A stretch of DNA of 63,906 nucleotides, counting the filler, from Phoronis australis (lineage: Eukaryota > Animalia > Phoronida), in assembly GCA_002633005.1 (NCBI GenBank). It is 10 parts of 10 records of this genome, joined end to end, with 100 filler letters (N's around TTAATTAATTAA, not from the genome) between each part and the next. Parts side by side here need not be neighbours in the genome. Positions count along the whole stretch, not along the records: positions 38,981 to 54,454 come from NMRA01001447.1; 9 more parts are not named here. One strand, written 5' to 3'. This document shows, piece after piece, positions 4,260 through 63,906 of the stretch. The notes under the pieces were generated by a model. That model did not search any database, was not told the origin of the DNA, and saw nothing but the letters and a program-made list of their open reading frames with translations. The stretch's first letter is position 1. Every line of letters starts with the position of its first letter. A program made the translations under genes and the position numbers.

Positions 4260-4390
4260 AGGTCATGCCAATCAAACTGAATTACAAAACAAAACAATAC
4301 AACTAATAATACTGTCAGATTATATTCTGACACTCAAAAGAGAACAATTTTGGATAGATAAACTCAATACACTTGGACCTAGTGGATTAA

Positions 4391-31490: not shown

Positions 31491-31491
31491 G

Positions 31492-31828: not shown

Positions 31829-31928
31829 NNNNNNNNNNNNNNNNNNNNNNNNNNNNNNNNNNNNNNNNNNNNTTAATTAATTAANNNNNNNNNNNNNNNN
31901 NNNNNNNNNNNNNNNNNNNNNNNNNNNN

Positions 31929-32117
31929 ATTCGCACGGTAAAGTCAACGCAAAACCAAGTGGCGGGAAACGCTTGCCTCCTAAAACGTCACTTCCGGAGT
32001 AGCGAACGAGTAAATAATAAAATTACGAAAAGCTGTAATTAAGTGGAAAATATGTCTAGGATAACCAACCAACCTTATTTTAGATCAAAATGACATGGAA
32101 AAAGGTTGCCTTCGCCT
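31929..32117 (-). mobile_element. Terminal ~190 bp of the same Kolobok-type family, inverted relative to copy 2
   Basis: The reverse complement matches 30855-31044 closely. Ends ...AAAAAGGTTGCCTTCGCCT|TTAG. Confidence 0.9.
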
Positions 32118-32777
32118 TTAGAAATAGCTTTGACTAGTTCCCTGTCAAAGTAGAACGACAGCTGTACACCAATCGGATAAGCGCATTTGAAGACAAAATT
32201 TTGAATTCACTCTTTTGGTTTTAGTTATAGTTGGTATCTCCTGTCTCTAAATAAAGTGAAGTCTGGTTCTATAAGGGTCAGTACAGGACACATGCAGCAT
32301 AGATCACATATTAATGATATTGCAGCCCAAGTCCGGTACTCCGTTGATCAGATATTTTACTTCCTTCTTTGTTGAAAGTCTTCTGTTCTGCTGGTACACT
32401 GCTGAATCAGTCGTGATCAATAGACTCAAAAACTCATACAGAGCCTGAAGGCGGTGGTCTTTTAACATGTTGTCTCTTTTGTGGTAAGTCTCCCTTTAAC
32501 GACTTATACGATGAGAATGCGAAAACTTACGTTAAATGTCACTATGAGCTTATATTTTGAAACTTACATTTACCTGTTTACAATACATCTGAGTTGTTTT
32601 TGGTCTCACACATTTTATAGTCGTTTGCGCGGGGAAACCGATCTGTTTTACTAACACTGGTTTTATTTTGTCTGTTCTTTTATGTTTTTTGATATAACAA
32701 ATTCAAGAAGAATGACTTATGAACTTTAGTAAATTTATTTCAGTTAGCACTATTTCGGTGACGCCACGACCATCGAC

Positions 32778-32987
32778 ATGGAAGAAAATGACCAAAGAAA
32801 ACTGCAGAAAGCAAAAATCCCGATAAAAGAAGATTTAAACCCTGAGGAGTTTGTGGTTGACTTTTTGATGAAAAAATTCATTTTGAGTCACTACGATAGG
32901 GACACAATACACAGCCGCAGAACACGACAAGAACAAGTCGATGAGCTTCTGAATATTTTGCCAAGAAAAGGTCCACATGCATTTACG
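32778..32987 (+). CDS. CARD-domain protein, first coding exon (caspase-, RAIDD- or NLR-type N-terminal CARD)
   Basis: MEENDQRKLQKAKIPIKEDLNPEEFVVDFLMKKFILSHYDRDTIHSRRTRQEQVDELLNILPRKGPHAFT contains the CARD signature LLxILPxKGPxAF. Acceptor TTTATTTCAG ends at 32743; donor ACG|GTAACT at 32988. Confidence 0.9.
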
Positions 32988-33135
32988 GTAACTGCCAACC
33001 TTCCATTCTTTATAAGTATGGATGCAAAGTGTCAGTACGGATAGAAGACAGTCTTTGATAAGTAGTCAGCGTCCCATCCTCCACCCTCCCTCCCTCCCTT
33101 TCCCCGGCCTTCCCCCTTCCTCCTTCACTGCCATT

Positions 33136-34060: not shown

Positions 34061-35170
34061 AAAAAATAAAAAGCACAGCATTCATGTGCATAGCGGCCAT
34101 ACTTTGAAAACAGGCACAAATTAAAATATAGGGTTACGTACACTACACAAATGCTAATAATTCACTCAAAACAAATGTGTTCGCAATAAACACCCTTTTG
34201 ACTTAACATTTTCAAGAAAGGGAACTGTGTATGACCAATGTTGCTCGCTTAACAAGTGAAATTTTAATTTCATGGCATTTGTAAACATGGGGGTACGTAC
34301 TCTACAATAGTATATGCGTACTCAACATCACTGTTTCTGCATCACATTGTAACGTAGTGTTGTATGGTCATTTATTTTTCTTTGATGATAATAAGCACCA
34401 CGTTGCTAATTAAAAGGCAATATATTCATTTGCAATGACCATTTGTGTTACTGAATTCCACATGGGGGTACGCAAACTACATTTTTTTAGCCTTTGTGGT
34501 CCATTTTCAGCCTAGCAGAACCCCGTCAATAGACATTGAATAATTTGCTGTGTTGCCTAGGCTAACATATTCTGCAGTTCTTTTTATTACAGAGTGTGAA
34601 CTTTGGTTTTTAACCTTCTTAACAGTAGGTGAGGGTTAGAAACATATAATTTACAAATTTAGGAACGAGTGCATGTTTTATGATGAACCCTACCATTTCT
34701 TAACGATTAAGCACAACTTCATCTAATTGATTCTGAAAATGACTCAAGTTATTCCCAGTCATATCTAAGCAGTTGCTTATTTGATGAAATAAATTTCTTT
34801 TCTACTGTTGACAGTTGAAAATTGTATTTTTAAAATGGCCACTCGTAACACTAAAAGTGCATGAAATTCAAAAAACATGCATCAATTTCTCAAACATTGT
34901 CCGATTTTGATTGTTCTTTTTTAATTTGCACAACTAAATAACTCTTTGCATATGATATTCAGTTGGCATTTGGTAAGTGAGCAAAAAATATTTNNNNNNN
35001 NNNNNNNNNNNNNNNNNNNNNNNNNNNNNNNNNNNNNTTAATTAATTAANNNNNNNNNNNNNNNNNNNNNNNNNNNNNNNNNNNNNNNNNNNNGATGCTG
35101 AGCTTGCTGATCTTGCCACAAAACAAAACAAAACAAAACACAAAAAAGACAAACAATTAGTTAAAATTAC

Positions 35171-35839
35171 CAAAACTGAATTATACGCTTCAGCGATTGT
35201 TCTTTCAATATCGAGATAATCTTGCTGGATTTCACGAAGTCTCGCATCTGATAACTCGTTTGTTCGCATGGCTAACTCGATCTCCGAGTCACAAGACTGG
35301 TCATGGCAAGACACAGACATCGTGGAGCAGTTGTCAGAAATTTCCTCGTAGATATGGTCAGAGAGAACCTGGACATAGTTATCTTCTCTACCACCAGGGA
35401 TATCATCATTGCCAACAGGAGGCAGTGCCGTTAGACGTTGATAGTCAGCAGTACAAAATGAGTAAGTCAATGCCCGGACAGGAATATGAGTGGTAACATC
35501 TTCTTCCTGTTTTTCAGAGTCCTTTTCTCCAGTTTGGATAATTGTTTCTGTTTCAAAATCCCTTTCTTGATCTCCAGAGCAATAATAATTTTTGGACACC
35601 GCTGCACGTGAGCACGATTTACCTCGAAATCTATCCCAGAATCTCGCTATACTTGACAACCGTTTGCCCATAAACGCAAAGGATTTAGGGACACCTCTGC
35701 AAGCCATGATTTCACCAGGCGATTCCAACTCATGTGAACACGACCATAGTGAGGTAGAGGCATTAACAGCCCCCGCTGTGCCGTAACTATGGCAACTGTT
35801 GTTGTTACGCAAACCATGCCTAGAGTGCCAATTTATAGT
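35171..35839 (-). CDS. Large internal exon (223 codons) of an unidentified protein
   Basis: Pyrimidine-rich acceptor ...TTTGTCCAAACAG, phase 0, open for 669 nt (TINWHSRHG...DHIYEEISD...AYNSVL), candidate donor TTG|GTAATT. In frame with the exon at 36202-36371. Confidence 0.6.
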
Positions 35840-36201
35840 CTGTTTGGACAAATCAAACAAAAGAAATGGAAGAAAGACTGTGGAAAAGTTGACAGAATTT
35901 ATCAACAGAAATGTAGCACACAGAAACTAAATGATAATCTCGCAAAAGAATGCAACAGTAGATAATATTAATGTTTCAAAATACACACCTTAATAAATCT
36001 GTATTAAGTAGAATATTCTAAAAATGAGGCCCACATAAATTTGCGTTGTGCCCATTGGGACACAGTGTCAAACTAATCGTAACTCAGCCGTAAATCTAAC
36101 ACACTACAGGCATGAATTTTTCTTTAATGTTTTCAGCTTCCAAACAAAAGAGGATTTGATTGATTCCAATTATTTTTCCAAATCTGTCCAAAACATTTTA
36201 C

Positions 36202-38980: not shown

Positions 38981-39205
38981 CACATCACATCAAGGCATCG
39001 CATTAACACATCACACCAACGCATCACATGAACACATCACATGAACACATCACATGAACACGTCACATGAACACATCACATGAACACATCACACCAACGC
39101 TTCACATCAAGGCATCACATCAACACATCACACCAACGCTTCACATCAACACATCACATCAACACATCACATCAATGCATCACATCAACACATCACATCA
39201 ACACG
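38981..39205. repeat. Minisatellite of CACAT / CAACACATCA / GAACACATCACAT units
   Basis: Directly visible. It explains the repetitive ORF at 39080-39283. Confidence 0.95.
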
Positions 39206-39548
39206 TCAAAGGAACTGACTTTTGATTTAGGTTACTTACAGCTGGAATACTGGTCACAACTTATTCCTAACTTAAGGAGATAAGTGGCTGTCTAGACTTG
39301 GAAAATAAGACATGCAACATCGCTTGAAACCATTTCATAATGGTAAATAGTCAAAGTCAAACAATTTTTGTGGGGGAAGCCAGATTTTTAGAATTTAACA
39401 GTTTTAACATATTGCTGTTTCATTTTAATAGTTTTTCTGGTCTAGGAAAGAAATGAGAGGCATCACTGCTTGAGATTATTTCATAGCAATCAATATACGA
39501 AAGGCGGTATTTTAGACACCTTTAAGTATTTCTGTTTCATTTTAATAG

Positions 39549-39844
39549 GTGACTATGGGCAGTCGGCGGAGCATGTTGCCAAAAGCCTTGAAATTACAGA
39601 GGACATTTTTGGAGCCAGCAGTATAGAAACAGCACATGAACTTCGGAAACTCTCCGCCATACAGTACAATATCTTGGCCTCGGTTCGATACACCAACAGC
39701 ATTGCTATGGAGACCAAGTTGAAGGTAGTTCGTGCACTGGACATCTACCGAACAAATTACAGTGAGACTCACAACGATGTTCAGGAACTTGAGGAGTTTC
39801 TTCATAGTTTGGAGCAGATGGTTTTAAACCAAGGAGAACAGTGA
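39549..39844 (+). CDS. SMYD4: SET and MYND domain protein 4-like, terminal exon (TPR-like C-terminal domain)
   Basis: Acceptor TTTCATTTTAATAG, phase 1. (G)DYGQSAEHVAKSLEITEDIFGASSIETAHELRKLSAIQYN...DVQELEE resembles the SMYD4 C-terminal pattern GDxxxSAxHxxxSL......GxSSxExxHELxKLxxIxxN...xQEL. Stop at 39842-44. Confidence 0.75.
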
Positions 39845-40473
39845 TGTACGATGGTCAGGGTGGACAGACAATCTCTTGATTGCACTTGCAGCTTGGTCGT
39901 TCAGTTGTACAGTACAGGCCAAAATTATACCGGCAAAATGACCCTGAATTTCTTGTCATGACATCTGAGTTGTCTTCCTGACCAATAACGAAGGGGTAAT
40001 GACAGGAACGTTAGTTAAATAGGATAAGCCTCTCATTTGCTGGTCGAATACTTGTTACCAGTCATTTTTGATGTTAACAGAATTAACCCTCATGACAGGA
40101 AAAGCATATTTTGTCTGTTGTACTGTAAGTTGCATTTGGCTGCTTGCTGCAGTGTCTTAATGTTTCATTATTTCAAACTCCTAGGTGTTTGGTTTAACTC
40201 TTGTGGTAGGCTTGACTACAAGTCTCGAACTGCGTTTTCTGTAGACAAGGGGCAAGGTACTTGAGCTTTATAAGGAAAGAAGAGAGACAATCTTGATCAC
40301 ACTGATCTGTCACTTACTAAAAGTACATGTAGACACAAAAGGACTGGTTGTCCTATGACTTAACCTATGACTCTTCATGAAATTTGGTAAATAGATTTCT
40401 GTTGATGAGGCGATGACACCTTTTTGTTTTCAGATGGATTTTCCCTAGTGTAGGCCTCCTGGTTGACATTTTT

Positions 40474-41082
40474 ATGCGCCCACATATTTATATGTGGACG
40501 CATTATGCCGTCATCTCTGTCCGTCCGTCCGTCCGTCCGTCCGGGCGGCGTCCGTCCGGCGTCCGTCCGGCGTCCGGCGTCCGGCGTCCGCTGCTCTATC
40601 TCCAAAACCCTTTGACATACGTTCATGAAATTTGGCACATATGTTCCATTCATGAATGGGACGGCATGTGCGAACTTTCGGACGGATCCGACTACCGGTG
40701 TGCCCCCTAGTGGCAATTTTAGTTTTTTACGCTTACCTTTGTATCTTCAAAAGTCCTGAACGGATTTTCATGAAATTTGGTATGTAGGCACCTAGTAGNN
40801 NNNNNNNNNNNNNNNNNNNNNNNNNNNNNNNNNNNNNNNNNNNNNNNNNNNNNNNNNNTATGTTTCTGTGGTGCTTTAAGCAACTGGTGTATAGGATGTG
40901 CTTGTATTATGAAGATTACTCACATTTTGCCCCTAGCCTATTGAGGAGACAATGACCATGCCTTTCCATTTTGCAAAGTATGCCCTCTACTGGCCACTTT
41001 ATGGTACCAATAAACAACCCTAGAAGGATACCGTATGCGGTGCAATTGTGGGCGCATTTCAACGCTCCGCGTTGCTCTTGTT
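40474..41082 (+). mobile_element. DINE-1-like Helentron-associated non-autonomous element with intact termini
   Basis: Follows a T-run. 5' subTIR ATGCGCCCACA (40474-84) with partner IR TGTGGACGCAT (40493-503), then a (GTCC)n/(GGCGTCC)n microsatellite, 3' subTIR TGTGGGCGCAT (41047-57), 3' hairpin CAACGC-TCC-GCGTTG (41060-74), ending CTCTTGTT. Contains a 60-N gap. Confidence 0.85.
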
Positions 41083-44000
41083 AGAATGTTTGAATCCATT
41101 CGGTTTTTAGCGTCCATCTCTGTATCGGCCAAACCACTCTAAGAATTGTTGTGAAAATTGGTAAATTTGTTCCTTCTGGGAAGAGCATAGCTGACGGTTT
41201 TTGGACAATTTTGACTGCTGTGACGCCCCCTAGTTGCAGTTTACTTTTTTCCCATTTGCAACTGTTTCTCCCTTCAAGATATTTTGCGAAATTTTGCAAG
41301 AACTGCACTTCTATGAACATGACAACAGATGACATGTTTGGACCTCTCTGACCTTTGAACCCCTGGTGTTTGGGAAGAATGACTTGCTATGCAACCCCTG
41401 GAGGCTATTTTAAGTTTACTAATGAAGCATTGCTTTAAAATAGAAATCACCCGTTGTGTCTGTGCTACATACCATCATGGGCGGTGCAGCTCTGAAATTA
41501 GTGGGGCTATAGCCCCCCCCCAACCCCCCATGGTGCACGCAACCCATGCATACCATACACACTTTGGTAACATATCAACGTTCCCGGTTGCCCTTCTTGG
41601 TCAGGTAGTGATTTGGAAATAAATTTTCGAATTTGTAAGGTACTCCGGTTTTAAACTCTTCCCAAAAAGTGCATGGAACGGGTCTATTTTTTTGCCATCA
41701 GAGATACTGTGTGAAGGGTAAAATCGAAAACTGACTTTCCATTACCTCGGGGTTGGGCCAGTAAGTAATGTTTTTATGCCAAAAAGAGAACTGTTCGAAA
41801 CTGTTTAGAGCGCGAGTCTGTGAAAGTCCTCCATCTTCTTGACTCCTTGAGGTTTCAAACACTGACTCGCATATTTGGCGCATAAATAAATGTTTATTGA
41901 CAAAATGAACGAAAAATAAAGACATGTCAATGCAAAATATTAATTTATTTTTTGACAGTTACATTTATCCCACGTGATTCTATTCATCATGGAATTGACA
42001 TTGACTTGCAGACAAAGCTGCACCATGCCGCAAACTAAGAGCGTTGTGTGGGGTCTGAAACTATTTGGGTCACATACATGTACATGCAAGACAACTACTC
42101 TACAGTAGGTTTCGCATCCTTCTATAGTGCCCACAGACATGCAGGAAGAGAAGACGTTTGGTTTCAATTCTCACACTTTTTCTCTTGGCTTTCAATGCGG
42201 AAATAAATTACTGGATTGTTCTGGACTGATTATGCGGACGAAAGCTCGGTCAGTGGAGTCGCACAGTCGATTGAATGGACGAAAGGAAACCCTCGTTCAA
42301 CGTATCATGTTGAGCTCGAATATTTGTGTTCACCCACACACAATGTAGAGGGATTACATAAACAGATAAGTTTCGCACCGAAGTATTATTGGTCCTCGTA
42401 GATAAATACCGTAGGTAAAAGGTCTAACGAGCGCTTCTTATTTCCTTATAGTTGTTATCCATATTAAAAACTGGCCTCAACTATTGAGATCTTAAGTAGT
42501 AGTCTCTGGGCTTGGAAAGTCGCCGCTGTCATTAATGCGGCAGACCAAGCTCGGTGCCGAAATGACCCACCGTGAATAAGTAGATTTTTGAGCGTTGCCC
42601 CACCGCGCAACTGTTGGCGTATTCTTCCAAGTTCATAAATTACCTCTATTGTGAATAAGGGAGCTTGAAACCACTTTTGTGATCCAATTCAAAGTTATGT
42701 TTCGAAGGAATGGGAGTTGTTTTTGTAGTGCTTTTAAAGTTGTCCCTAATTTAATGAACATTTGCTATATGTGCGTGAGTGCTTGCGTGCGTGTTTGTTC
42801 GCCTATATACCTTTCAGTATTTATGAACGATTAGCCAAGAAATACCTATAAACAGTAAACGCCGTATATTTTTCAGAGAGTGTATTTAAGTTGGCATAAT
42901 TTGATATGCTTAATGCTAATTGGTTATTGATTGGGTCACATGATCATATCTTTGAGTGAAATTTACCGGAAAAGAAACTAGACGCATTTATAGAAAAACT
43001 TTCATCAAGAATATGACCACATTCGTGAAGATGAAATTTCAATAGCCGGCCGTATGTTCAGGGTAATACAGCACCATACGCCCGCATAAGATGCATAATT
43101 TTTTAAATGATTTGATCCCGATAGGCAATTTTTATAAAATTCAACTCTTAGTAGTAATACTCGTTCATAACATTAATTCTTGCTAAAGATGTTAACTGAA
43201 TTAATTATTTTTCGTGTCGGCGTATCAAATGAAAAGTCGTCCGCGAAGGCTTGCTATTTTTATGAGAGCGACGTGACTGGGTTCTCGATACCGAGGCATG
43301 CCTTGGATACTAACGACAGGGCCGCTTAGCCATACCTCACTACGATAATAGATCGAACGAGAAACGTTACAAGGAAGTTACATTATATGCTTCCGGTCGG
43401 ATGCATTATATAACTGACGTTATCTTATCATTATTGCTACTGGTCAGAAAATGGGTCTGTGTAGTCGCTCAGCAGCGGCTCGTATCAAATTAATTGTTTT
43501 AGGCCCATGACGAACACTTACGAACACTGACTCTTCCAATGCATGACCTTCTCTGTCACTCTGTAAGTTCGTGCCATGTGTTTGCCGCTACACCCCGAGA
43601 GGTTTGAACCCGGGGGGTACTCCCACAGAAGAGGAACATGTACATGTATTAGGGGACGTGGTGCTGCGCAGATGGGAGGCCCCTCACGACCATTATCCCT
43701 GCGAAAGGGTGCACATTCCATTAAAATTTCTTGCGACAAAAGGGTTCCCTTTAGTTAAAAGAACGTTTTGAAAGACTGAACAATTGTCAACACAAAAAGA
43801 CACATCATAAACGTGACCCATATTCAGGTAGTCATTTTAATCTCGCCTTCCGATATTTTCATAGCTAAGTACTGTATGATAGCTTGACCCGGGATCATGA
43901 CCTAGTACCGTGGTGTTCTAACCGTGCAAAAGTAAGCGATACAAAAATCTTTATGTCTGCTATGTAGTTGGGAGCCGCTTCGTCTCTCCGTCTACCTGGT

Positions 44001-44521
44001 TTCTGTTAGTCGAGTTACACAGCAGGACATGCGGGCCGGGATTCGAAGGACCAGCTCGGATCTGGCGTCATGTTGGAGACAAAGTCAGGATGAAACCGAG
44101 CTCGCAAGAATCATGTTCTTAGGACCGATTGTTTTGGCGGCCTGTAAGAGTTCGGGATATATTTGACAATTTCCACTGAATATCTGATGGCGTTGACAGA
44201 GATTTGCAGTCACGGTTGCGCAGGTTTGTCGTTTAAAATTAACCACATATCGTTAAATTGTAGCCTTGTCAGCATGCGTGAATTTATTACTGATTAGAGA
44301 TTGAGTCGTAGTTGGGTTCAGGGTGACGTGAATGGTTCTGATGACGAGGTCGGTTGAAACTAAATTTAGGCCTACGTTTTTGTATTTCGCTGTGCTCTAG
44401 TCCGATGTAAATTTTAATGCTATTAAAAATATGCTATCACGTGGCCATTGTCTAGAAATGTTACGTGTTGTGTGGTCGAACAATCCACGGTAAGCCAACG
44501 TGAAATCTCACATCTTAACGC

Positions 44522-44723
44522 GGATTTTCCCCTTCACATGTTTTTTTATTAAAATACCCAGTTAATATACTCAAGTGAACTTTCTCCGCTCAGACAGAGT
44601 TTGCAATGTTGTATTTGCCACGTGCCCTGTACGTAGTGTGCTCCTCCGATCACCTAGGCAACAAAGGTATATAGGTTCAGCCGTTGACGTAGTAGGCCTA
44701 GTAGTAATTTTAGGGGAATTCCC
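44522..44723 (+). promoter_or_regulatory. Candidate NF-kB-responsive promoter region of the beta-trefoil gene
   Basis: kB-type GGATTTTCCCC at 44522-32 (reverse complement GGGGAAAATCC), TATA-like TATATAG at ~44669-75, CRE-like TTGACGTA at ~44684-91, and palindromic kB site GGGAATTCCC at 44714-23. All lie within ~320 bp of the ATG at 44837. Confidence 0.45.
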
Positions 44724-44836
44724 ATCCTTGGGTATTTAGAACAAGCTACAAGGAATACACCCCATTTATGGATGATTACTGAGTCTGGCGAGATTGGATT
44801 AGTTTAATTCTGCAGGGACTTCACGCTGATAATTTA

Positions 44837-44986
44837 ATGGATCGCAAAACCTTGGACAATTACTTGTTTTCATTCGGACGAGAGGTTCACAGGACATACA
44901 GTGAAGAAACTCGATACTATATAGACGAACATGGGCAGAGACGCAAGAAATCGACAAAAATTACCAAAGTGTGTTTTTTTGACCAA
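44837..44986 (+). CDS. Putative IL-1/FGF-like beta-trefoil protein, coding exon 1
   Basis: Acceptor TTCTGCAG ends at 44815, ATG at 44837, consensus donor CAA|GTAAGT, phase 0. Translates MDRKTLDNYLFSFGREVHRTYSEETRYYIDEHGQRRKKSTKITKVCFFDQ, with no signal peptide. Confidence 0.6.
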
Positions 44987-45297
44987 GTAAGTTAGTAGCT
45001 TTAAGGTGACGTTATTGGCGAGAAAGGTGCTACTGAAATCAACCCAAAGGCGAGGAATCGAGTGGTTAATTCCATAATTAATCGGCCGAACAGTTTCGTG
45101 AACCTTTTACTCACAAAGTTGAAAACCTGAATTATAGCAGGCCAACAATTAAGTAGAGATACCATCTTTTGCAAGCAAAGTTTAAAAAATCTTGATACAA
45201 ATGTGATTTCATGTATTTGGAGTGAAAGGCTTGCAGTCAATTAGCTTCAAATTCGGCCAAAGCGAATCCCATTCTTGGGAATTTTGTCCCAAGAAAA

Positions 45298-45574
45298 CAT
45301 TCGCGCACCCAGGGGAGGAGGGTGGCGCGGGCGCAGGGGTCTCGAACCGAGAGCCCCCCCCATTTGGCGAATTGGGCAAAAAGGTCCACCTCAAGAAACA
45401 AAAAGTCCGAAAAAGTAGAAAATGAGACAAAAGACCACTAAAAAGCCAGGAAGTACCAAAATTTAGCGATTGCACAATTCATAGGTTTGAACGTACCCCG
45501 TTTTTCATTTAGTAAAAGGTCCACATTCTCGAAAATTCGAGCCGCCCCGTATTTTTAGGCTGGGTGCACACATG
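45298..45574 (+). mobile_element. hAT-like MITE, 277 bp, 6-bp TSD AGAAAA
   Basis: TIRs CATTCGCGCACCCAG and CTGGGTGCACACATG; AGAAAA at 45292-97 and 45575-80. Homologous to 60290-60524. Confidence 0.85.
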
Positions 45575-45681
45575 AGAAAAGGTAAGCGTAAATTAATATT
45601 TGGATGTGCAACTCATTTAGTCCGTCTCGTGTCGGCGCACTCACGAATGTTATAACCAACGTGACATCAGGCAGGGATCGT

Positions 45682-45722
45682 GCAGTAGCAGTAGCAGTAG
45701 CAGTAGCAGTAGCATTACCAGC

Positions 45723-45771
<49 letters not shown>

Positions 45772-47600
45772 TTTATTTATTATAGTGACAAGTAACAGTT
45801 ATAGGTATGACATTCGTAAGAAGATAAGTACCCAGCCCAGTTGGGCTTATTAGTCACTTTAACCACACAACTCAGATGTAGGCCTACCATAAATGCCTCG
45901 GTTCATAAATTCAAAAGCAGACTTGATATATTTGGCAAATTGCTTAGGGAAATACTGAAATAGCAGTTTTAACGTACCTAATCTACTGAAATCTGCAAAG
46001 TTCGAGATTTTAAGTGAAACAGAATAGACCTCCGTGTGTTTTAAAGAGAACAATCAAACACAAAATGTAGCTCATCATCCACAGAACCAGAATCACAACA
46101 AGTAAAGTCTTTCACTTACAGGCGTGTTTACATAACGACCAGTTTCCAAGTGCAATGGGAGATTTCCTGCTCTAAGCTGATCCAAAAGAGATCGCTCGGA
46201 ACGCGATTAATTAATCTTTACATACGGCTCAGCTAAAAAACTCGTGCTTAGGTTCTTAACAACTTTAGTTTTGTTACAACAGATTCAGCCCAAGCATGTT
46301 TCTCGCATTCAAATAGCTTGTTTCTAGCGTCTACTATGTTACAAGTAGTCAAATTTTAAAAACAGGATTGCGTGCCAGTTATGTTAAACAAATTTTTGAT
46401 TCCGTCTATCCAACCCTTTCTACCAACAAAGTAGTCCCTTAGAAATACCTTCTTCAGTAACCTATCACCATCTGCGGTTATTAGTTTGTTCCAAAGACGC
46501 CACCTATTCAATTTAAATCTATTTCCGGTGGAGTCCCACCCCATGTCGCCACTAACAGCATGAGTGACTGTAAATCGGTTGACCCCTAAATAAAAAGGCA
46601 TAGCTGCTTTGAATATTTTCTTCATTACCAAAATTTTCGTAACCCCAAACAGATGACCCGTGATCCAAAATTGGTGCCACACACGAATTAAATAACGTTT
46701 TAAACGTTTCGAATCCTACTGTATATTCTTGTTATCACGGAATGTTGAAAATATCTTCCTTAATTTAACGATCTACCAGAAGCTTCAGATAACGCATTCG
46801 AATTTTCTTTGAAGTCAAGGTGTTGATCCAGAATACAGCCTAAATATTTGTATGAGAGCTTGTAACTGATGACACTGTTCAAAACATTGGACACCTTAAC
46901 CCAGTTTTTAATATCCAGAGCTAAGTCATTTATATACAATGCAAAGAGTGCCAGTGATAATACGTCCTCCTGACGGACACCATTTTCAGGAGTGAATCAA
47001 CCACTATACAGAGTGCCATTTAATCGTATAGGGTTCAACGGACTTCTGTAAACCATACGAATTGCATCATACATTCTATCATTAATATTATTTTGCAGTA
47101 ATTTATAAAACAGAAGTTCATGGTTTGTCCAGTCAAAAGCTTTCTTCATGTCCACAAATGTCACAAATGTAGAACGATGAGACGACTTTCTTGTTTGAAT
47201 AATTGATGACAGGACATATAAGTCATCAATACAGGACCATTGGCTTCGAAAACCATTTTGCTCTCAACAAAAATATGTTCACAGAAACCCAAAATTCCAT
47301 TATACAACACAGCACTAAAGATTTTATAAATATTGGAAAGAAGACTAATCCCACGGTAGTTCAAAGGTAACCTAGGGTCGTCTGTATAATTCTTAGGTAT
47401 CGGGTTTATAATTGCCTTTAGCAGTCAGAAGGCACACGTTTAAAAGATTCATTGAACGATTGAGTTAGAAAAACAACAATAGTCTCGAATCTTAACGCCT
47501 CATAAGTTATACGGTCATAGCCGTCGGCTTTGTTCTTCTTTGTTTTCATAACAACATTTCTAACCTCATCAATACATATTTCACAATTTACGGTTTACTA
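45682..47600 (-). mobile_element. 5'-truncated decayed LINE (CR1/L2-group-like ORF2) with a (TAC)n 3' tail
   Basis: The - strand gives EVRNVVMKTKKNKADGYDRI, NYRGISLLSNIYKIFS, FVDMKKAFDWTNHELLFYKL, GVRQEDVLS...LFALYINDL, YKYLG and QLRAGNLPLHLETGRY. It has many stops and frameshifts, and the YADD region appears deleted. AATAAA followed by (TAC)n marks the 3' end. Confidence 0.92.
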
Positions 47601-47743
47601 TTTACAACGTAAGATCACATGGCTAACAAATTACCACAAATATGTGCTCAAGTGAAATCCCATTCCCTGTGACCTTTTTGGTTCACGTGACGTATTTGCA
47701 CAGATCAGTATGCAGCACATAATATTGCGGGAATCCCATTTAA

Positions 47744-48920
47744 GGTTATGTATTACTTGTATTTAGCCAATTTCTAAAAAAAAACTACAGATTGAACTCA
47801 GTAAAAGCATACATTTTCCGAAAGTGTAGAATCTGAGTTGACTTTTTGCCAATGTGGTATGAGCTAATTCACCATGATTTAGTAAACGTTAGCGTATAAA
47901 GTTAGGTATATTCTTGAAAAAAAACAACGGTATCAATTGCCTGACCAAATTTTGTTTAATATAAATGTTAAATGTGAAATTTAAAAAACGCTGTTGCTGA
48001 ATTTTAATTGATCTTCATTTTCAGTGCAAATTTTGACTTTCTCATGAGAATCATACAAGAACAATTTTGATATGAATTAGAAATGCTACCCAAATTCGAT
48101 CATTTTTCGAGGATCTTACCCATAACCTCTGACTTCCAAAGTTCTCTCAGTTGAATTTAATGCCTTCTTCCCTGGCATTTGACAAGCTGACTGCTTTGAT
48201 AGAATGGTTTCACACGTCACGACGCAACACATTTTGCCTGTTTGTTTAATAGCCACTCTGTCAATGACGGTGAGATACTGACCCCGTCCATCTTTGTCGA
48301 TTATCAATTAAAACCCGTTTAACTTAGCCACAGCTTATAGGACCCCGAGTCATACTCACAAAAGATTTATGTTTCTTTTTGGGACCATTTCATGCAACTA
48401 GGAAACGGAACGTCACAGTTCAGAAATAGCTGATTGAATTCGTACCAAACTTTCACGTGTAGTACTTCACTGCATGCTCTTATCTCAAAGCACGTCAATT
48501 GCTAATTGTTTTCATGTTCCACTTTTGCATGGGGAGGTATCAAAGTTATGTTTTTCAACTAAATGTCTAAGGAGGTGCTTAATGCGAAAACAAAATGGTG
48601 TGTCATTATGAAATAAGATACAGCGCTTGTGACTGGTCATGCTGAACATTCATATATCAAAAACAGATCAAATTCGGCATTGTCATTGATACCGTTGTAT
48701 TGCTTTGAATACGTCTTTCGTTTTTGCTGAATTTGTCCAAAAAGCGTGGTCACGTGACTTAACTAATGCCAGACTAGCATAAATTAACTTAAAAAGCAAA
48801 AAACAGGCATTCTCCTTTCAGAAAATATTTGTATCAGCACAGTTACAGTGTTATTTTTGCTGACATTTTGTCAGAGACTTGCCCCACGATCTGTGCCCCA
48901 ATGTCAAAGTCCTTTACCCT
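47744..48920. mobile_element. Possible old non-autonomous TTAA-type DNA element
   Basis: Left end TTAA|GGTTATGT...ATTTAGCCAA...TTTTCCGAAAGT resembles 18997-19095. An inverted CTTTCAGAAAATAT lies at ~48815. The right terminus is unclear. Confidence 0.35.
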
Positions 48921-49001
48921 TGATTCTCGTATTACATCTCCAAAGAGCACGTGTTAACTTGCCTATTGTGAACATCCACACAAAAACTTGTTTGTTTTTA
49001 G

Positions 49002-49205
49002 GGTCATGACACGACCGACAGGAGCCCGCAAGTGGCGGCACCAATTGGAGGATCACTGAAACCCCTAGTCAATAGCGGACTTCGTCTTTGGAAACGTCAT
49101 CATCTGTACGAGTTTGGCGGATCTTCTAACTGGTCTGAAGGATCTAGGACAAGTCTTGCCTCAATTGACTCTGGTTATAATAGATGTAAAGACAACTTTC
49201 AGGAG
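49002..49205 (+). CDS. Putative beta-trefoil protein, coding exon 2 (pro-region)
   Basis: TTTGTTTTTAG acceptor and GAG|GTAATA donor, 204 nt, phase 0 to 0. Translates GHDTTDRSPQVAAPIGG...SRTSLASIDSGYNRCKDNFQE. Confidence 0.65.
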
Positions 49206-50252
49206 GTAATAAGCGTTGTTGTAATTCACAAGTACTTTGTTCCCGTTTTTTATTGTTGCATACATGTATTATCAATACCAGACTTTGAAGGCTTTTATGC
49301 GGAGTACGGCAGAGTAACTGAGGGTTGGAGGCAGGGAGTGAGGGAGGGAGGGTGGTTGGGAAGAGGGAGAGAGAGGGAGAGGGAGAGGTCCCAATTACGA
49401 GCTCTGAACGCACTTATACCATTTTACGTTCATTTTATAATTAATAGATGACCCAAAAACCACCCTCTATGATTGTTGGGAACCGACCCGGTGACCATGA
49501 ACCTGGATGACCCACGATAGCTTTCACATCATCATAGGATTAACTTCGCGCTAGAGAAAGAATGATCTTTGGGCTCAGTGTTGTCACACTAAATAAGATC
49601 GGCTTAAATGTTTTGCACCTCGTGTTTGGTTATTACATCGTAACTGACAGCGCATTGGATCCTTGCTGAACGACGTGCCATGTTCCTCAGCTGTGTCCCA
49701 CATGTAGGCCGTTCTTATAGCGGAAGGTTTACTTATGAATTCAGCTAAAGCCTAAGTTACAATTAGCACCCAGTCTGCATACCATAGTTGTAGTAAGCAC
49801 CCAGTCTGCATGGCCTTTTAAACCATTTTTCAAGTTTTCTGGGTTGGCAACGGGTTTTATACAAGTAGCAGTATATAGTATCTATCAAGTATCTCACCGA
49901 CCTCGTCCTTTGGGCCTGTTTGAAGTTGGTGATGATTCGAAGCCTACATCGTACTTGTAGTATGAAGTTCCCCCTGGACACACCGGACCTTAGACTGGAC
50001 CGGAGTTACAAATCATGATATATGCCAACTTGGTAACAACCTACCGACGACTTCGGAAATATGTCCAGAAATGCAACATTGGCAATTTTCAGCTCACGGC
50101 ACCACGTTGCTGTTGATGCTAAACTAAGCCGTTACTAGATTCTGAAAGCAAATTTCCTCTAGATTTTAACAATGTCGTGGTAAAAAACGGGTGCTGACAG
50201 TCCCAGTTTTTTGTGGTATTGGACTGTACCTTAGATTGTGATGTGTTTTTAG

Positions 50253-50376
50253 CCGGTGTACAAGGCCAGAGTACGATTGTTCAGTAAAACAGGCGACGGA
50301 TGGCTAAGAGTTGTAGCAGACGAAAGTCAAGATCGCTACTACCTGGACACCAAGGGACGCAAGAGCGACCCAAACA
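50253..50376 (+). CDS. Putative beta-trefoil protein, coding exon 3
   Basis: GTGTTTTTAG acceptor and A|GTGAGT donor, 124 nt, phase 0 to 1. Translates PVYKARVRLFSKTGDGWLRVVADESQDRYYLDTKGRKSDPN, with an FGF-like RL(F/Y)SxxGxxL start. Confidence 0.7.
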
Positions 50377-50611
50377 GTGAGTTTTACAAACTACATTTAC
50401 GGCCGTACGTTCTGTAACGCAAAGTAAGGATTTAGTGATTGCAATGAAATTTTGTGTTTCGCTTGTAATCCATAGAGGCTACACTGATCTAGCTAATGAC
50501 TACGTGATTTCACCAGACCCGCAAAGAAACAGTGTACCCTTCTGAAACGCAGGCCCGGCAAGTACATAGCTTAATATTATACATTTATTGTTTAATATTT
50601 CTTATAGTGAC

Positions 50612-50770
50612 CAGGGGGATCCAGGATTTTGAGTTGGGGATGGGGGCTGGGCAGAGTATTAGGCAGGATTTTGTCCGTCAGACATTCGCACCTCCGAACT
50701 GTCAACTAGAATCTGGGAGAATTTTAAGAATTGAGGCATGTCCCCCTTGCCTCCCCTAAATCCGCCACTG
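50612..50770. mobile_element. Short CAG...CTG TIR MITE remnant (hAT-like)
   Basis: CAGGGGGATCCAGG ... CCTAAATCCGCCACTG. Similar termini occur at 56071-56393, ~61413 and ~12035. No TSD was recognised. Confidence 0.5.
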
Positions 50771-51141
50771 GTGTCATCGCAGAAAACAATACAGGAACAA
50801 CTAAACTTAGTATACATCTCATCCACGGCCTCTTGAGGTTCCAGGCCACCCCAATACCACTTAACACCCAAACCGTTACTCACATGTAAAGAATTTTTAT
50901 TTGTGGATGCTCCGATGTCAGACAAAACGAGTACCTTTGGCAGCCATTCGCTTTCAAAATGTCAGTACCTGAACATAGATATGTGGTCTTACAACGCGAC
51001 GTGTATATTTTCACATTTTACGACACTCAATATTAAATTTTTGCTCTGTTGATACCATGCAGCGTTCAGTGAATAAATCAAGGTTTTCTTTTCGTAAGTT
51101 TTTAATTTGTAAGACAATCCTAACTGTTAAAATGTTTGTAG

Positions 51142-51266
51142 GTCGGTTCATTTGGGCGGACGACAGCCGAGGTCGAGGTATGGCGCTGGCCGTGGAAATA
51201 TCCAACAATTCCGAACCGAAATGTCTTTGCATTTCCTACAACAGAGACCGTAGCTTGAAACTTGTG
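51142..51266 (+). CDS. Putative beta-trefoil protein, coding exon 4
   Basis: TGTTTGTAG acceptor and GTG|GTAATC donor, 125 nt, phase 1 to 0. Translates (S)RFIWADDSRGRGMALAVEISNNSEPKCLCISYNRDRSLKLV. Confidence 0.7.
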
Positions 51267-52079
51267 GTAATCCTTAGACTATGTTTTTTTCTTCATTATT
51301 TCGTGTTTAACAAAATACTCCCGGTTCTAAACCTGTCAGTATTGGCATTGAAGGATATTGATGAGGGCGCTTGTTAGATTGTCCCTTTGGTCTGCTGATA
51401 TTTGCTTATATTGATTTAGATTGATTTAGTGTATTTTGGCGTACTCGCGTTTTTGTGTGCTTTGATAGCTTAGAAATTATTTCAACTTTAATCAAAAACC
51501 TCACACTGAAACACATTGCCAGCATCCAGCGTCATCTGACGGCGCAATGGCGAAGACACTTGTCTGTGATTTTATGCAAGCCAAATAAACCATGTTTTTG
51601 CTCCTGAAAAAAAAACGCTATTTTGAGATTATTATTTAAAAGTATAGACTTTTTGAAGTTATTAGCTGTGTTGTGGGATTTGATTACAAATCGCCAGTTC
51701 TCGTCGCTGTCTGTCAGACATTCGCTGATGTACAGCTAATACGTGTCTTCACGCTTAACGTAATGCGGTAAACACGTTGAGGATGACCCTTCTTCAGCGG
51801 TGTCTATTTCGAGCGTCTGTCAACTCACGGTGGATATTTTCCATTATTAGTTGTTATGTTCATGATACGATTAACTAAGACGTTAAAGTGTATCCCGAAA
51901 GAAACGTGTAAAATTTTCGAGTTTTGCATGAACATATTGTTATTGTAAAAACGGGAGGGAAGGTAGAATGTCGCGGCGTGTACATGTAGGTCACAATTTT
52001 TCGTTTTAGTTTGCCGAATAGGAGGAATCGTTAAATGGTTACTCTTCCAGTTTCATGTTTTTTGTTTTTGTTTTTGTAG

Positions 52080-52177
52080 CCTTGTGTGCTAAATGAAGGG
52101 TCAGCGAATGTTCCAGACGAGTCCTGCATATTCAAAAGCAGCATAACTACTGATTGTGTTTCCAGAAAAATTGCCAG
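52080..52177 (+). CDS. Putative beta-trefoil protein, coding exon 5
   Basis: Long T-rich acceptor TTTTTGTTTTTGTAG, phase 0. Translates PCVLNEGSANVPDESCIFKSSITTDCVSRKIA, with a CxF motif as in FGF ECxFxE. Candidate donor AG|GTACTA; otherwise the frame reads on to a TAA at ~52226. Confidence 0.6.
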
Positions 52178-55047
52178 GTACTATTTTTTGTTTTCAGCGT
52201 TTGCTTCTTACCATACTACTTTTTAAGTATATACATATATATCCATTGCAGAATTAATCTTTCAGGCCTTAGGAATCTGGGGCCATGATAATTTGGGATG
52301 TATCCTCCATCGTCAGCCTGCCATCCGTCGCCACAATTCCTGGCCGGTAGTCCGTGAGAATTGTTCACAATATTTTCCTAACACCGCGACAAGTTTAGGG
52401 ACCCCTGTGCTAGGGATCCCAAGGTGTTAAGGACAGATTAAAACTTCACATGCAGCTCAGAGTTTTTGCCTAATAAACATAAAGCAGTTGTTGTTTTACG
52501 ACATTGTCTAATTTATAAATTTATTTCACTGCGTTGAGCTTTTGTTATTATGGCGTTAAATAATTGAGGGCGCTACATCAAATTTCACAATGGCCTGATA
52601 CGAAACAACATTAGTGCCCGGCTGTTTGAAACTGTCCCAAAAAGGGACTCAACTAAGTTCCCTAAATCTAGAAAATCTTTTTACTCACAAATTAAATATT
52701 TCTCTAGCAGTTGTTGTCGTCTTAATCATGTGGTCCTTTAGGACTAATGACACTTTCTAATAATATATCTAAAAATAGAGACCTGATTTCAGTAGTTTTA
52801 ATAAAAGTGTAACTCTCGGTTTGTATCAAAGTAAAAAGCTGACTTAGCAATGAGAACGAAATTCTGAGCATGAAGAACAATTGTTTTTATAAGTTAGTCC
52901 GCAAATACGGTAAAAGTTAAGAAAGCAAATTGAGTCACTGTTTGGAACTATGCATCAGGCATAGTTGTGGCTTATGTCAAATTTGAGTTTAGCAAAGTGG
53001 GAACCTGAATTTGGCGCACTTTTGAGAAGGTCGCCATTGATTACACTTGTTATACTACTGTAAATGCGTGGCTACGTTTGTTCTTGTAAATTGTTGATAA
53101 AAATGCTTTGTACGAGCCACGTCACGTGCTCGTATTTTTGACGACTTGAAGACACGCTTGACATTGGTGGCTAATGACATTTTGCTGTCATGTGCAAGTC
53201 ATCTGGTTTAAGTTGTTGATCAGGAAAATTAACGCCAAGCATTGCCAACGGTCCTGGCCGTAGTCAGATAAACACCACCGGAACTAAAAGTTGCTTATTT
53301 ATTGATCTGCATGGATGATTGATGTTATTGAAATTATATTTCATGAAAGTAAAAATACCAGGCGGCTAACTAAAGCTATTTTTTTGACCATCAATTCTGC
53401 TTTCTTGAATTCAATAATTCTATTTCATGTGTTCGGTTTCAAATAGCCCTGTTGCAAGCTCTCATGGACTCTGTTTCGAGTAACAATTTGTGCTCTTTCA
53501 AATACATGTATCACCAGTGTGGGTTGCAAGTGATTTAAGCTTCGAGGGAAAATTTTCAATCACTTTGGGGAAATTGTTAGGCCTCGTAAGGGGAATTTCG
53601 CGTGACTTTTTAGTATTTTTGCGAGGGGAATAAGGCCGATAATAGACCCAAAATTGAAAGATTGAGGGTCCTGGCCTTTGTGAAAAGATATGCATCATGT
53701 TTCAACCCGTAGTCAGTCATTACAACACGGCCTGGCCGGCCGAAGATTCACCGGTCGTTTCTATGATGCTCGGCAACCGAGATGTGACAAAATGTGATCA
53801 AACATACATGTTTATCAATTTTACCCGGAAAATAATATTTTTCTTTGTCGTGGCAACGACCCAATGCTTCCGAATCTCAACATCTTTAGGCATGGTAAAA
53901 AAGACAGTTGAATAGTATAAACGGATTTAAGCTGTGAGACTCGGTATAAACACAAAACAGTTGCACTGTTTTGGTCATAACACTACAAATGAGTCAAAAA
54001 AAAAAAACTTTCGAGGAGTTTAATCATATTCCAATACGTACAGTTATCCACGTTCACGTATACGTATACATGTACATGTACGTACTCTGCTTAAGACCTG
54101 TTCAGTTAAGATTACGGAACCTTCGTATCAAACGGCCACTGCGGGATACTCGAACAAAGAGCTCAACTTACATTAATGTCACATCAACACAGCGTGGCCT
54201 TGATGTGATTGCATGCGATTCTGTTTCAATGGCTTGAGGTGGTGTACCATTGTTTGCTGTGCAACATGAGCTACCGTACAGTCCGCACCGAAACCTTGGC
54301 TGATGATCAACGACACGTCTGGCTATATATGCTATCGTTAAAAGTGTTGTAGTTTCATGTTCGTTGATTTCACTATAGTCTCAGATAAAGCCGGAACATC
54401 TTGCTCAGTAGTTCAGCTTTGAATGTCACCGTCCACAGTTAAACGTATTCATTGNNNNNNNNNNNNNNNNNNNNNNNNNNNNNNNNNNNNNNNNNNNNTT
54501 AATTAATTAANNNNNNNNNNNNNNNNNNNNNNNNNNNNNNNNNNNNNNNNNNNNAAAATTGTTCAGAAACGATTCTGTTTGAAGCAGAAACTGGAGTAGA
54601 AAATTTGGTCAAAAATGACTCATTCCACACCACGAAATTGCCTCATTTTGCCCCCAAGAACACTTCCCTTGTATCTCCTAAACCACCAAACTTTGTGGTG
54701 TCATACTTCACCCAATTTCTCTCATCCCTAATGTGATTTATCAGACTAAACATGGATCTGAATGGCTGACCCCCCACCTTGCCGCTTGTTGGCTGTACAG
54801 TGGTCGGTGGATCCGTGGACTGATACTTAAGTACAAATTTAACTACGCACTACGTGAAATTGATTTTGGATATGAAGCAGATAAAGCCAAGTGGAAATAC
54901 AAACCAGAATCTGTTTCTGTGCGCTAGAAGACCCTCTGCTGTACTGGGTAAATTTGGCATGTCCAAAAATAATTTGTATTTCGTTTTCATTGTACACAAA
55001 AGCATAAAAACCGACATTATATACAAACTGTGTAGAAGTATAACTTA

Positions 55048-55310
55048 TTACCTTGGTGTTTCTCCAGGAACGTTAGTCCTATCCTTCTGTTGTCTAGACT
55101 GCCGAGGAATCTGTATATAGGATCCAGTGGTTTGCTCGTCTTGGAACCATTCTACCCAGACATCTTCGATGTTTGTTCCCAACGCTTGCACTTCGTCAAC
55201 TGCTGTGTCAATGAGCTTGTAAGCCTCTAAAATGTCAGCATCTCGTTTCACAGCTCAGTTGGCACTAAACCCCCTGAGGTTGCCAAGTCCATTCAAAAGA
55301 CTTACATGCG
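55048..55310 (-). pseudogene. hAT-family transposase remnant (PRKRIR/THAP12- or ZMYM1-like C-terminal part)
   Basis: KRDADILEAYKLIDTAVDEVQALGTNIEDVWVEWF...IPRQSRQQKDRTNVPGETPR fits the DIxxAxxxI...PRxxxxQxxRxNxPxxxP pattern. Flanked by stops. Confidence 0.7.
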
Positions 55311-58170
55311 CAACTAAATTTGATCCGTTCATCATGGACTACTTCAAACCTTGACGATGTATCCCAGGAGCTACTTGCATCTCTTGCAATTTTCGAAATA
55401 AACGTCCCAATGTCTGAACGCTTGAAACCCGAAGTACTAACATCAAATAAATGCCCATGGGCATGGGCATTTCATCGGGTGGGCCTTTCTGCGGAAATTC
55501 CCAGTACAGAAGACGGCAGTGGTGCTTGCTGCAGGTAGAAAGACGGTAGGTGTTGAGGTCGGAACTAGGGCTCCTTAGGAGGTCTATTGAACATCGCACG
55601 AGTCCCGCAAGATTTTGTTCTGAAAGTACAGCCTCCCCCCGATATCTGGGACTGTACACTGTTCGCGAATGACGTCACTTTGTAAATGCGAGTGCCCCCT
55701 TGGTCATTCCTTGTATAGATATAACTTGTTAGAGTGCATCTTCAAACGGACACGTGACCAGACCACGGCGCTCACCACAATAGCAATTCGTCGGAAAAAA
55801 AGTTCTTTTCAAAAACATTACATGTACACGTGCACTGTATGATATTGCGCAAGACAACTTCACAATACACCAGTCAAATTCGAGTTACAAACGTGTGGAG
55901 TGTAATGGAATGACACGGTATGACAGATGAGGTAAAAACGCTGCACGCCAATGCCCCTGAATATCAGGGTTGCGGCACCACAGTATTTTTCCTGATCAAA
56001 TCAAAACATATCTTAGAGCAAAGAAGCTAGTTACCTAAAGAAAACAGCTACATGTATAGAGTTGCTCTTCCAGCGGTGGATCCATCTAAAATGCTTGGCT
56101 ACTTCAGAAGTGTTAACGGAAGCGCGCGCACAATTGATCTCCGTGCGTTTTGCCGATGAGCCACGAAGACTCGAAATGCGTTGATTTTCATAACAGCAAA
56201 TCACAGTGCAGAAATTATATTTTCAGAGTGAACCCTCCTCCAATTTTTTTCCAAGTTGATTTACTTGGTGTTTACACACGCTGGCGGTACCGTTTTTGCT
56301 TTGCTGGAGACGTTTTTGTTTTTTTATTTTTGGGTCCTGGCCCAAAGGGTGGAGGGTTAAACCCCCTGAACAACCCCCGTAGATTTGCCACTGCTGCTGA
56401 AGTACAGTGTAGAGTCATACCGTATATTTAACAAAAACTTTACCATTTTTCGTCGTTTAATACAAATTCTAACATACAAGTACATGTACATGTACATGTA
56501 TATGTATCCGTTTTTGCAATGAATGTTGGGAAGCTGTTGCAATATGGGCCAATAAAATAGCATGAAGATTGCGTGTTTCTTTTTGATTTTTACACTATAG
56601 TCTTAATGGTGGTTTTTGTACTTGAAACACGTGACACTACCGCTGTCACTAAAACAGGGAAGAGAATGACTTCCGTGACGTGTTTTAGTAATCATTGTAT
56701 CAGCGGTTTATGGTGCCAAATATCGAACCACGGTGGACCATCAACATTTTTGTGACATACCAGTACCTAGTTATTAAAAGGAAGGATTGCGAAATCTGAA
56801 ATCAGACCCGACGGCCGTTTGGCCACCCGCCCCCGCTCGCCAACAATTTCTTTTGCCACCTTTTATCACCTAGGCGCAATCAATTTTTCAGTAGCCACCT
56901 GCACTTCAGCTTATTGAGGGCGAACTTCTTATTCCGTCCCTCTCTTCGGTGAGGTGTGGAGGTGCGTACCCCCCGACTACGGACACGTGTTGTCAGGCAA
57001 CCCGTTCTTACATGTGCATGTACATGTACATGTACCTGTTGGTCAGTCATTTGGCAGTACACCGCTGTCACGGGTTCTGCTTCTTATTCTTTAAAGATAA
57101 TGCCCCCCAATAAACAACCTATTTTGTATCAACTTAGATCGAGTAGTTCCACTCGATAACAGCAAGTTCAGTTGTTTTACCTGACATCTAACGGCAGAAG
57201 GAGGTGTTGAAATTAACCGATGACGTAATCGGTTCGAACGCAGTCTGTTCAGCCGTTCACAACACGCTTACTGGTGTCAACTTATCGCTTGAATCCATCG
57301 TTTTACACTAATAAATAATCAAAATTCGATGTAACTCCCGAAGTCTTGAACAAACGTGTTGTTTTATTTCACTTTTGACGGATTTATAGGTATTTGAACC
57401 GTACAGAGTTCGGTAGGCCAATTTACCATGGTCGATCGCGGTAGTTTGGGTCTGTTTGGTGATAAATTTACACCATTCTTTCGTGAGATACAGACGGGGG
57501 AACATAGCTTTGTGTTTTACTTTTAGACTTGCGATTTTTTCAGTTCTAAAAGCATGAAACGCTTGTTACTCCCCGCCAGTTGCTCGGAACCCAATCAGGC
57601 CTGGTCGCGGCCTCCGGCGAGGACTGGACATCACGAAACCAGCTTAAGTTGGTAACTAAGCCTCCAGTCACGAAAAGACTATAATAATGAGCCCAGAAAC
57701 AATGTGCAGGTAATTATTTAGGTGAATTATCCACGAAATTGGAAATCTACTTACTTGTACGGGGCCGCGAAGTCAGGTTCCCCGGCCAAAGAACCGTCAG
57801 GGCAAAGGTTGTACAGTAACAATGATTTGGATAACGTATTTGTATATCTAAATAAAGATTCCCCTAACATGTGACCATGGAATATAAAATCGAGTTATTG
57901 TTTCACATCAGCTATCTGTCAGCAAATACTGCATTAGCATGCGCTCACACGGCCTCGGTGCCCGGTCAATTACCTTTATTGCACCTAAAGCCGGTAACGC
58001 AGTGATTTATTCACTGCTGGCTTCTCAAAACATTTGGACTCACGAATACTCCAGGGGCATTACAAATGGTATCTGATGTGACAGACTTTGTTTCAGTTTC
58101 ATATAAGCATTGTTTAGGGTGAGAATAATTCATTTTGAAACAGAACTGACGCAGATTAATAAATGTCTAC

Positions 58171-62785: not shown

Positions 62786-63906
62786 CCGGCTTTATGAAGT
62801 GTGTCTTTCAAAAATCACCTTTGAGCACACGCTCCCACTTGTGGAGCTATACCTAGCCTAAAATTAACAAACCCGTGTCTTTGCAATGTTTTTGAGCACA
62901 CGACTTTAGAATGTAGTGAATGTCCACACTGAAATTAAGCAAATTAAGAAGAAAATAACGCACAGCGGTTCTTAGACCACACAATCTGTGTCTGAGCGAA
63001 CCTTTATCTGACTAAAATATCGTACAACTAATATATACTTAATTAAGATGTCGAACTTGTGGAAAAGATAGTACCGGCTATAAAGAATACATGAGAGTAG
63101 GTGTGCGAAGGGAATTGACGTTAGTATGTGGGCTGATGTTCGAACGTTGTGATTGTTAATCTTGCAGAATGTCTCAGTAATCGGGGCAGACCGGCTTTAT
63201 GAAGTGTGTCTTTCAAAAATCACCTTTGAGCACACGCTCCCACTTGTGGAGCTATACCTAGCCTAAAATTAACAAACCCGTGTCTTTGCAATGTTTTTGA
63301 GCACACGACTTTAGAATATAGTGAATGTCCACACTGAAATTAAGCAAATTAAGAAGAAAATAACGCACAGCGGTTCTTAGACCACACAATCTGTGTCTGA
63401 GCGAACCTTTATCTGACTAAACTATCGTACAACTAATGTAATATGCTTAATTAGAATGTCGAACTTGTGGAAAAAAAAACACCGACTATAAAGAATACAT
63501 GAGAGTAGGTGTGCGAAGGGAACTGACGTTAGTATATGGGCTGATGTTCGAACGTTGTGATTATTAATCTTGCAGAATGTCTCAGTAATCGGGGCAGCCC
63601 GGCTTTATGAAGTGTGTCTTTCAAAAATCACCTTTGAGCACACGCTCCCACTGGTGGAGCTATACCTAGCCTAAAATTAACAAACCCGTGTCTTTGCAAT
63701 GTTTTTGAGCACACGAATTTAGAATGTAGTGAATGTCCACACTGAAATTAAGCAAATTAAGAAGAAAATAACGCACAGCGGTTCTTAGACCACACAATCT
63801 TTGTCTGAGCGAACCTTTATCTGACTAAAGTATCGTACAACTAATATATACTTAATTAAGATGTCGAACTTGTGGAAAAGATAGTACCGGCTATAAAGAA
63901 TACATG
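62786..63906. repeat. Satellite DNA, ~405-bp monomer, 2.8 units
   Basis: CCGGCTTTATGAAGTGTGTC starts at 62786, 63191 and 63599. Units are 405 and 408 bp plus a partial one, and are nearly identical. Confidence 0.98.

Follow-up and report, generated by a model that had tools for sequence, protein, structure and literature searches.

A hidden spliced gene of Phoronis australis that probably encodes an orphan cytokine-type beta-trefoil, with its lineage between FGF and IL-1anc undecided

A stretch of 63,906 nt from the Phoronis australis assembly GCA_002633005.1, referred to throughout as the window, contains a hidden multi-exon gene that probably encodes a cytokine-type beta-trefoil, an orphan whose lineage between FGF and IL-1anc is undecided. 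The window consists of 10 parts joined with 100 filler letters between them, adjoining parts need not be genomic neighbours, and the gene lies in the part at positions 38,981-54,454, which is NMRA01001447.1. Several N gaps, for example 54456-54555, carry a central TTAATTAATTAA spacer, which is an assembly linker. The gene and the elements proposed to belong to it are as follows.

44150-44223, + strand: exon 1B, an alternative first exon of at least 73 nt, joined to exon 2 (44223>49002)
44713-44723, no strand assigned: putative palindromic NF-kappaB-type site, 30 nt upstream of the start of the exon 1A contig
44753-44986, + strand: exon 1A, coding from ATG 44837 for 50 codons, with a basic RRKKSTK cluster; an X4 contig joins it to 49002
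49002-49205, + strand: exon 2, pro-region of 68 codons, with a caspase-like site and RNA joints
50253-50376, + strand: exon 3, predicted strands 1-3, ending in phase 1, with RNA joints
51142-51266, + strand: exon 4, predicted strands 4-7, ending in phase 0, with an RNA joint
52080-52177, + strand: exon 5, putative strands 8-9 with a CxF motif, ending at a phase-2 GT
52178-52265, + strand: candidate intron of 88 nt, GT..AG, 73% A+T
52266-52430, + strand: candidate last exon of 54 open codons, 49% A+T like exons 3-4, followed by AATAAA at 52472; it would give strands 10-12

Transcription was followed by mapping four runs to positions 41500-54450, with X1-X3 as raw reads (about 18-19% of each raw run was read) and X4, a run taken as RNA by guess, as contigs; the mapping tool skipped a repeat at 52048-52084 that covers the exon 5 acceptor. 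The original prediction had placed five exons here with GT-AG ends, intron phases 0, 0, 1, 0, a single open frame and 118 residues ahead of the core, and the spliced frame bears out all of this. Its gene start at 44816 needs revision, as the X4 contig places the start of exon 1A at 44753 or further upstream; the coding ATG at 44837 stands. RNA supports three of the four junctions that had been predicted: 49205>50253 and 50376>51142 by nine raw reads each (7/2/0 and 2/5/2 in X1/X2/X3), and 44986>49002 by a single X4 contig covering 44753-44986. The fourth, 51266>52080, is absent among the joints listed, its acceptor falling in the skipped repeat, and the exon 5 bin shows minus-mate depth only (1.68/0.87/0.52 in X1/X2/X3). 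At the read-supported joints the first mate lies on the minus strand, which fits RNA of the + strand, and the sole listed exonic variant, at 49028 in exon 2, is synonymous. This is a genuine spliced and transcribed animal gene.

Exon 1B enters exon 2 by a GT..AG joint seen in 13 raw reads (1/6/6 in X1/X2/X3), and hardly any depth from the raw runs falls in the bin of exon 1A (0/0.43/0). In the frame of exon 2, exon 1B contains stops; the one ATG close by (44187) lies in another frame and opens a short upstream open reading frame (ORF), and exons 2 and 3 have no in-frame Met. The form seen in X1-X3 would therefore not yield the full protein from an AUG, and the coding form of the transcript is that with exon 1A, present in X4. 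The NF-kappaB-type site was called with the kappaB consensus, which has 9 matches at 5 sites in 63.9 kb, where the window-wide chance mean is 2.75.

The 3′ end is less settled. Exon 5 ends at a phase-2 GT and the predicted 233-residue model therefore lacks the last strands; as a whole protein it is incomplete, since it stops at an open donor. Left unspliced, exon 5 adds 16 codons to a stop at 52224-52226, giving 249 residues, and splicing to 52266 as assembled meets a stop after two residues, giving 235. The same splice with a one-base sequence difference would add 54 open codons, for which the odds are about even, and the draft quality of the assembly makes single-base errors plausible; the last exon may also lie far off, inside a gap or outside the window. 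Summed depth per base is 13.5 for the short exon 5, 10.0 when the next exon is included and 6.0 for read-through to the end of the bin, with 18.2, 9.1 and 14.6 for exons 2-4, and this favours the short exon 5. In the candidate last exon, the steps L-x-I, L-x-C and W-x-V fit strands 10-12, and a test for the strand 10-12 pattern gave a weak result, passing only when one position was loosened; 12 of 348 acceptor ORFs of the window pass the loosened rule and 11 the strict one.

Two other continuations were rejected. A phase-0 GT at 52158 would join 52266 in frame; the donor is weak and strand 9 would be lost. A sixth exon at 55068-55230, by eye the last trefoil repeat, lies in a multi-copy repeat (54560-55640) with deep reads on both strands and many differences (up to ~120 per strand in the three raw runs), and loose read ends at 55070 do not match exon 5. 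The minus strand of this repeat reads as a decayed transposase, presumably of the hAT type, and its antisense frame looks like an exon that would end a trefoil and follows a good acceptor, an example of how readily trefoil-like patterns mislead.

Relatives were sought with single exons and pieces. Exon 4 returned two candidates from the protein collection, neither of them scored, and the rejected piece 55068-55230 returned 18, none a relative. Against 1.84 billion representatives, exon 3 gave seven matches, all to long multi-stretch proteins, of which the six scanned showed Ig, WW, RING, FG-GAP and comparable domains, all unrelated. Scanning metagenomes with exons 5 and 2 gave no relative, the best Atlas score with exon 3 was 0.81 among unnamed short clusters, the candidate last exon was unmatched in Pfam and PDB, and self-similarity comparison gave no paralogue in the window. 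A thin search of the open-access literature found no FGF/IL-1 intermediate. A neighbouring TPR-like exon used as a control also lacked a relative in the protein collection; the species thus seems poorly covered, and such blanks say little about novelty.

A decaying gene would account for several of these observations. It would be transcribed and spliced mostly from the start-less first exon and would encode a truncated trefoil of 235 or 249 residues unable to fold, as suggested by the raw-read isoform lacking an in-frame ATG, the early stops of both in-frame endings of the assembly and the failure of single-exon searches to find an orthologue. Yet 233 codons stay open across five exons with clean splice sites, the only exonic variant listed leaves the protein unchanged, X4 contains the coding isoform, the control exon is just as isolated, and a single-base assembly or allele difference would account for the 3′ mismatch. 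Decay is regarded as unlikely.

The encoded protein had been described as leaderless, and hydropathy agrees: no N-terminal hydrophobic stretch is present, and within its first 60 residues the Kyte-Doolittle mean over 11 residues peaks at 0.3. In AlphaFold2 models, exon 3 alone forms three strands (pLDDT 70) and exon 4 alone forms four (pLDDT 84 in the best model, 61-67 in the other four), the division expected for trefoil strands 1-3 and 4-7. The proposed beta-trefoil is thus matched by the strand counts of the exons, although no search with single exons or pieces links the protein to either family; extending these single-exon models to the whole, the protein is probably a beta-trefoil. Judged partly by eye, WLRV, CLCI, RFIW and SLKL (strands 2, 4, 6 and 7) fit the hydrophobic rules published for trefoil strands (PMC9062101). 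A hairpin motif defined post hoc occurs twice in the read-through core, a count reached in 1.1% of 5000 shuffles. An alignment of exons 3-5 stacked as repeats made no sense and was not used. The pro-region carries a caspase-like xxxD/S site, ASID/S (the slash marks the cut), at model residues 103-107, about 15 residues before the core, and in PMC13736523 one sea urchin IL-1anc is shown to be cut by a caspase ahead of its trefoil.

In both FGF and IL-1, the core is interrupted by a phase-1 and then a phase-0 intron. The gene has both introns, as had been predicted, but because the two families share them they cannot tell FGF from IL-1. For the FGFs, two conserved core introns are described in PMC11733497, and the gene has two as well, a trait that does not discriminate.

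Ancient invertebrate IL-1-type genes are already in print, and a first invertebrate IL-1 would not be a new claim. According to Fontenla-Iglesias et al. (2026, PMC13736523), IL-1anc genes occur across Eumetazoa, mostly as a PDZ domain plus trefoil and in some cases PDZ-less, with [F/L]ES in strand 9 and, as in IL-1, two conserved central trefoil introns. They are linked to GCC2, ESD, EIF2A and IL-1R, with paralogues known outside the locus, and came to light in a screen of PDZ proteins for [F/L]ES, by which, the authors state, very divergent members may be missed.

The assignment of the present gene to IL-1 in the original prediction finds no support in the defining features of IL-1anc. No PDZ match was obtained in exons 1A and 2 or in 150 of the 179 upstream ORFs of at least 58 aa, the other 29 lying between 37908 and 44163. 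[F/L][E/Q]S and the IL-1 signature, the latter taken from PMC7144542, are absent from both in-frame endings, which another true 3′ end could alter. GCC2, ESD, EIF2A, TRAF3 and IL-1R were not detected in the first 150 of 179 upstream ORFs (at least 58 aa) of a 64 kb window, with none scanned downstream; the neighbours are instead an integrin alpha, a CARD, THAP and a weak TPR match. Of six short motifs of the gene, five were absent in a text search of seven supplements of PMC13736523, and the sixth fell within a PDZ region.

Membership in IL-1anc as a PDZ-less gene, with the strand-9 motif decayed or in an unseen exon, must still be weighed. PDZ-less IL-1anc genes exist (PMC13736523), and AjapIL-1.1, PvanIL-1.2 and SpurIL-1.3 resemble the present gene in being leaderless, in an N-terminal extension before a C-terminal trefoil (predicted here), in two central trefoil introns, in a candidate caspase site upstream of the core and in being missed by ordinary sequence search. 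An L-G-I strand-10 motif also occurs, by eye, both in the starfish IL-1anc rows consulted and in the candidate last exon. However, the gene lacks PDZ and, in either in-frame ending, [F/L][E/Q]S, the reported linked genes were not detected in the ORFs scanned, and its motifs were largely missing from the supplements, with no match to Table S2 by motif search. At the entry to strand 8 it has ESCIF (Cys-x-Phe), in contrast to the D-x-R-x-F found by eye in most of the Table S2 rows read. This membership is judged improbable. Vertebrate IL-1beta is likewise made as a precursor without a leader, its pro-piece is about as long (cleavage at Asp116) and its promoter is presumably of the kappaB type, for which the site here is a putative counterpart; the gene differs in lacking the IL-1 signature and a Pfam IL1 match.

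The core motifs lean to FGF1/2, a comparison that rests on marks we take to be characteristic of those proteins and that appear in register: strand 1 opens with RL-x-x-K-x-G, strand 2 has L-R, KSDP stands directly ahead of the phase-1 intron, strand 8 has CxF, and the candidate last exon opens with A-L-x3-G-x3-L-G. Of the ECxFxE motif that had been proposed, CxF is present at residue 217, but CxFxE is absent from the model, as is what we assume to be the FGF family signature. Like FGF1/2, the protein is leaderless and has two core introns, together with the presumed strand 1-2 motif, KSDP and CxF; unlike them, it has a 118-residue N-terminal region on two extra exons, longer loops and no Pfam FGF or significant PDB match, and CxFxE and the signature fail.

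A second comparison is with FGF11-14, for which PMC11733497 describes alternative first exons, an intron flanking the core and a basic first exon, and which it reports only in tunicates and vertebrates. The present gene shares all three traits with FGF11/12/13/14, as well as the lack of a signal peptide; those proteins are well conserved, whereas no piece of the gene matches FGF and one of its first exons has no in-frame start. It is possible, though doubtful, that the gene is a highly divergent leaderless FGF, either FGF1/2-like, with unconventional release and an FGF receptor, or intracellular like FGF11-14. The marks in register, the traits shared with FGF11-14 and the sole cytokine match, FGF8 (E 1.9), speak for such an FGF; the missing CxFxE and signature, the absence of a Pfam FGF match for any single piece and the reported absence of FGF11-14 outside tunicates and vertebrates speak against it. 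Whether FGF and IL-1 are homologous or convergent is debated, and PMC5861070 argues that a shared trefoil is not by itself evidence of common descent; PMC6091094 added nothing decisive.

The preferred reading, with a probability of roughly 0.4, is an orphan cytokine-type beta-trefoil with a core leaning to FGF1/2 that works like interleukin-1. A precursor of ~290 residues without a signal peptide would stay in the cytosol or, through the basic cluster of exon 1A, the nucleus; a protease would cut at or near ASID/S before the core, and upon damage or infection the trefoil would exit by a non-classical route and signal via a surface Ig-domain receptor. Exon 1B would head a resting, start-less transcript and exon 1A the inducible coding form, which the putative kappaB site would drive upon challenge. 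The kappaB-like palindrome, the caspase-like site and the CARD exon 11.8 kb upstream in window coordinates, on the same strand, were counted as hints of IL-1-like use.

Several observations weigh against this orphan IL-1-like trefoil. Pfam searches at E up to 10 with exons and candidate pieces taken singly gave no match to the FGF core profile PF00167 or to IL1 (0/6 and 0/5), and phmmer against PDB with five pieces gave one cytokine match, that to FGF8, in a register other than the one proposed. Protein-collection, metagenome and Atlas searches with single exons found no orthologue, and Foldseek with the 41-residue exon 3 and 4 models yielded no match at E<=0.001, with no trefoil among the matches listed. 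Scores for a threefold repeat within the protein fall short of significance (p 0.22, 0.21 and 0.52), and xxxD/[GSA] occurs three times in 249 residues. The candidate last exon is in phase 0 while the donor before it is phase 2, which leaves it one base off the frame as assembled, and neither a joint from 52177 nor any joint of that exon is among those listed. The nine kappaB matches occupy just five sites, the contig cannot reveal the transcription start, and nothing ties the CARD exon to the gene.

The remainder of the window holds the following features.

4386-5900 and 30850-32120: a pair of THAP-type element remnants, related by self-similarity (Pfam THAP E 0.006 at 5611-5898)
14986-15180 and 16365-16697, - strand: integrin alpha exons (Pfam Integrin_A_Ig_2 E 4e-7 and 1e-6)
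29529-29828, - strand: Cys-rich ORF, ShK-like in spacing by eye, with no Pfam match
32748-33041, + strand: CARD exon (Pfam CARD E 7e-7), cut short where a low-complexity stretch and then an N gap follow
35093-35926, - strand: open frame of 278 codons, acidic and serine-rich with tyrosine motifs, with no Pfam match at E 0.01
39551-39844, + strand: final exon of a TPR-like protein (Pfam TPR_12, weak at E 0.026), presumably SMYD4-like
62786-63906: tandem repeat with a unit of ~405 nt and copies 95-99% identical, running off the window end

Candidates for the parent gene of the CARD exon are a caspase, an NLR or an adaptor, and the open frame at 35093-35926 may be an exon for a receptor's cytoplasmic tail.

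A gene with neither PDZ nor [F/L]ES is of the type that the IL-1anc screen would overlook. If it is merely a divergent FGF or an IL-1anc paralogue, it extends the gene list. With marks of both families and the same two core introns, its protein would offer a direct test case for homology versus convergence of FGF and IL-1. There is a slim chance that it represents a third cytokine trefoil lineage outside FGF and IL-1anc, combining an FGF1/2-like core with an IL-1-like pro-piece, a putative caspase site and a putative kappaB promoter; if so, its two core introns, common to both families, would make it a living link arguing for one leaderless danger-signal ancestor of FGF and IL-1.

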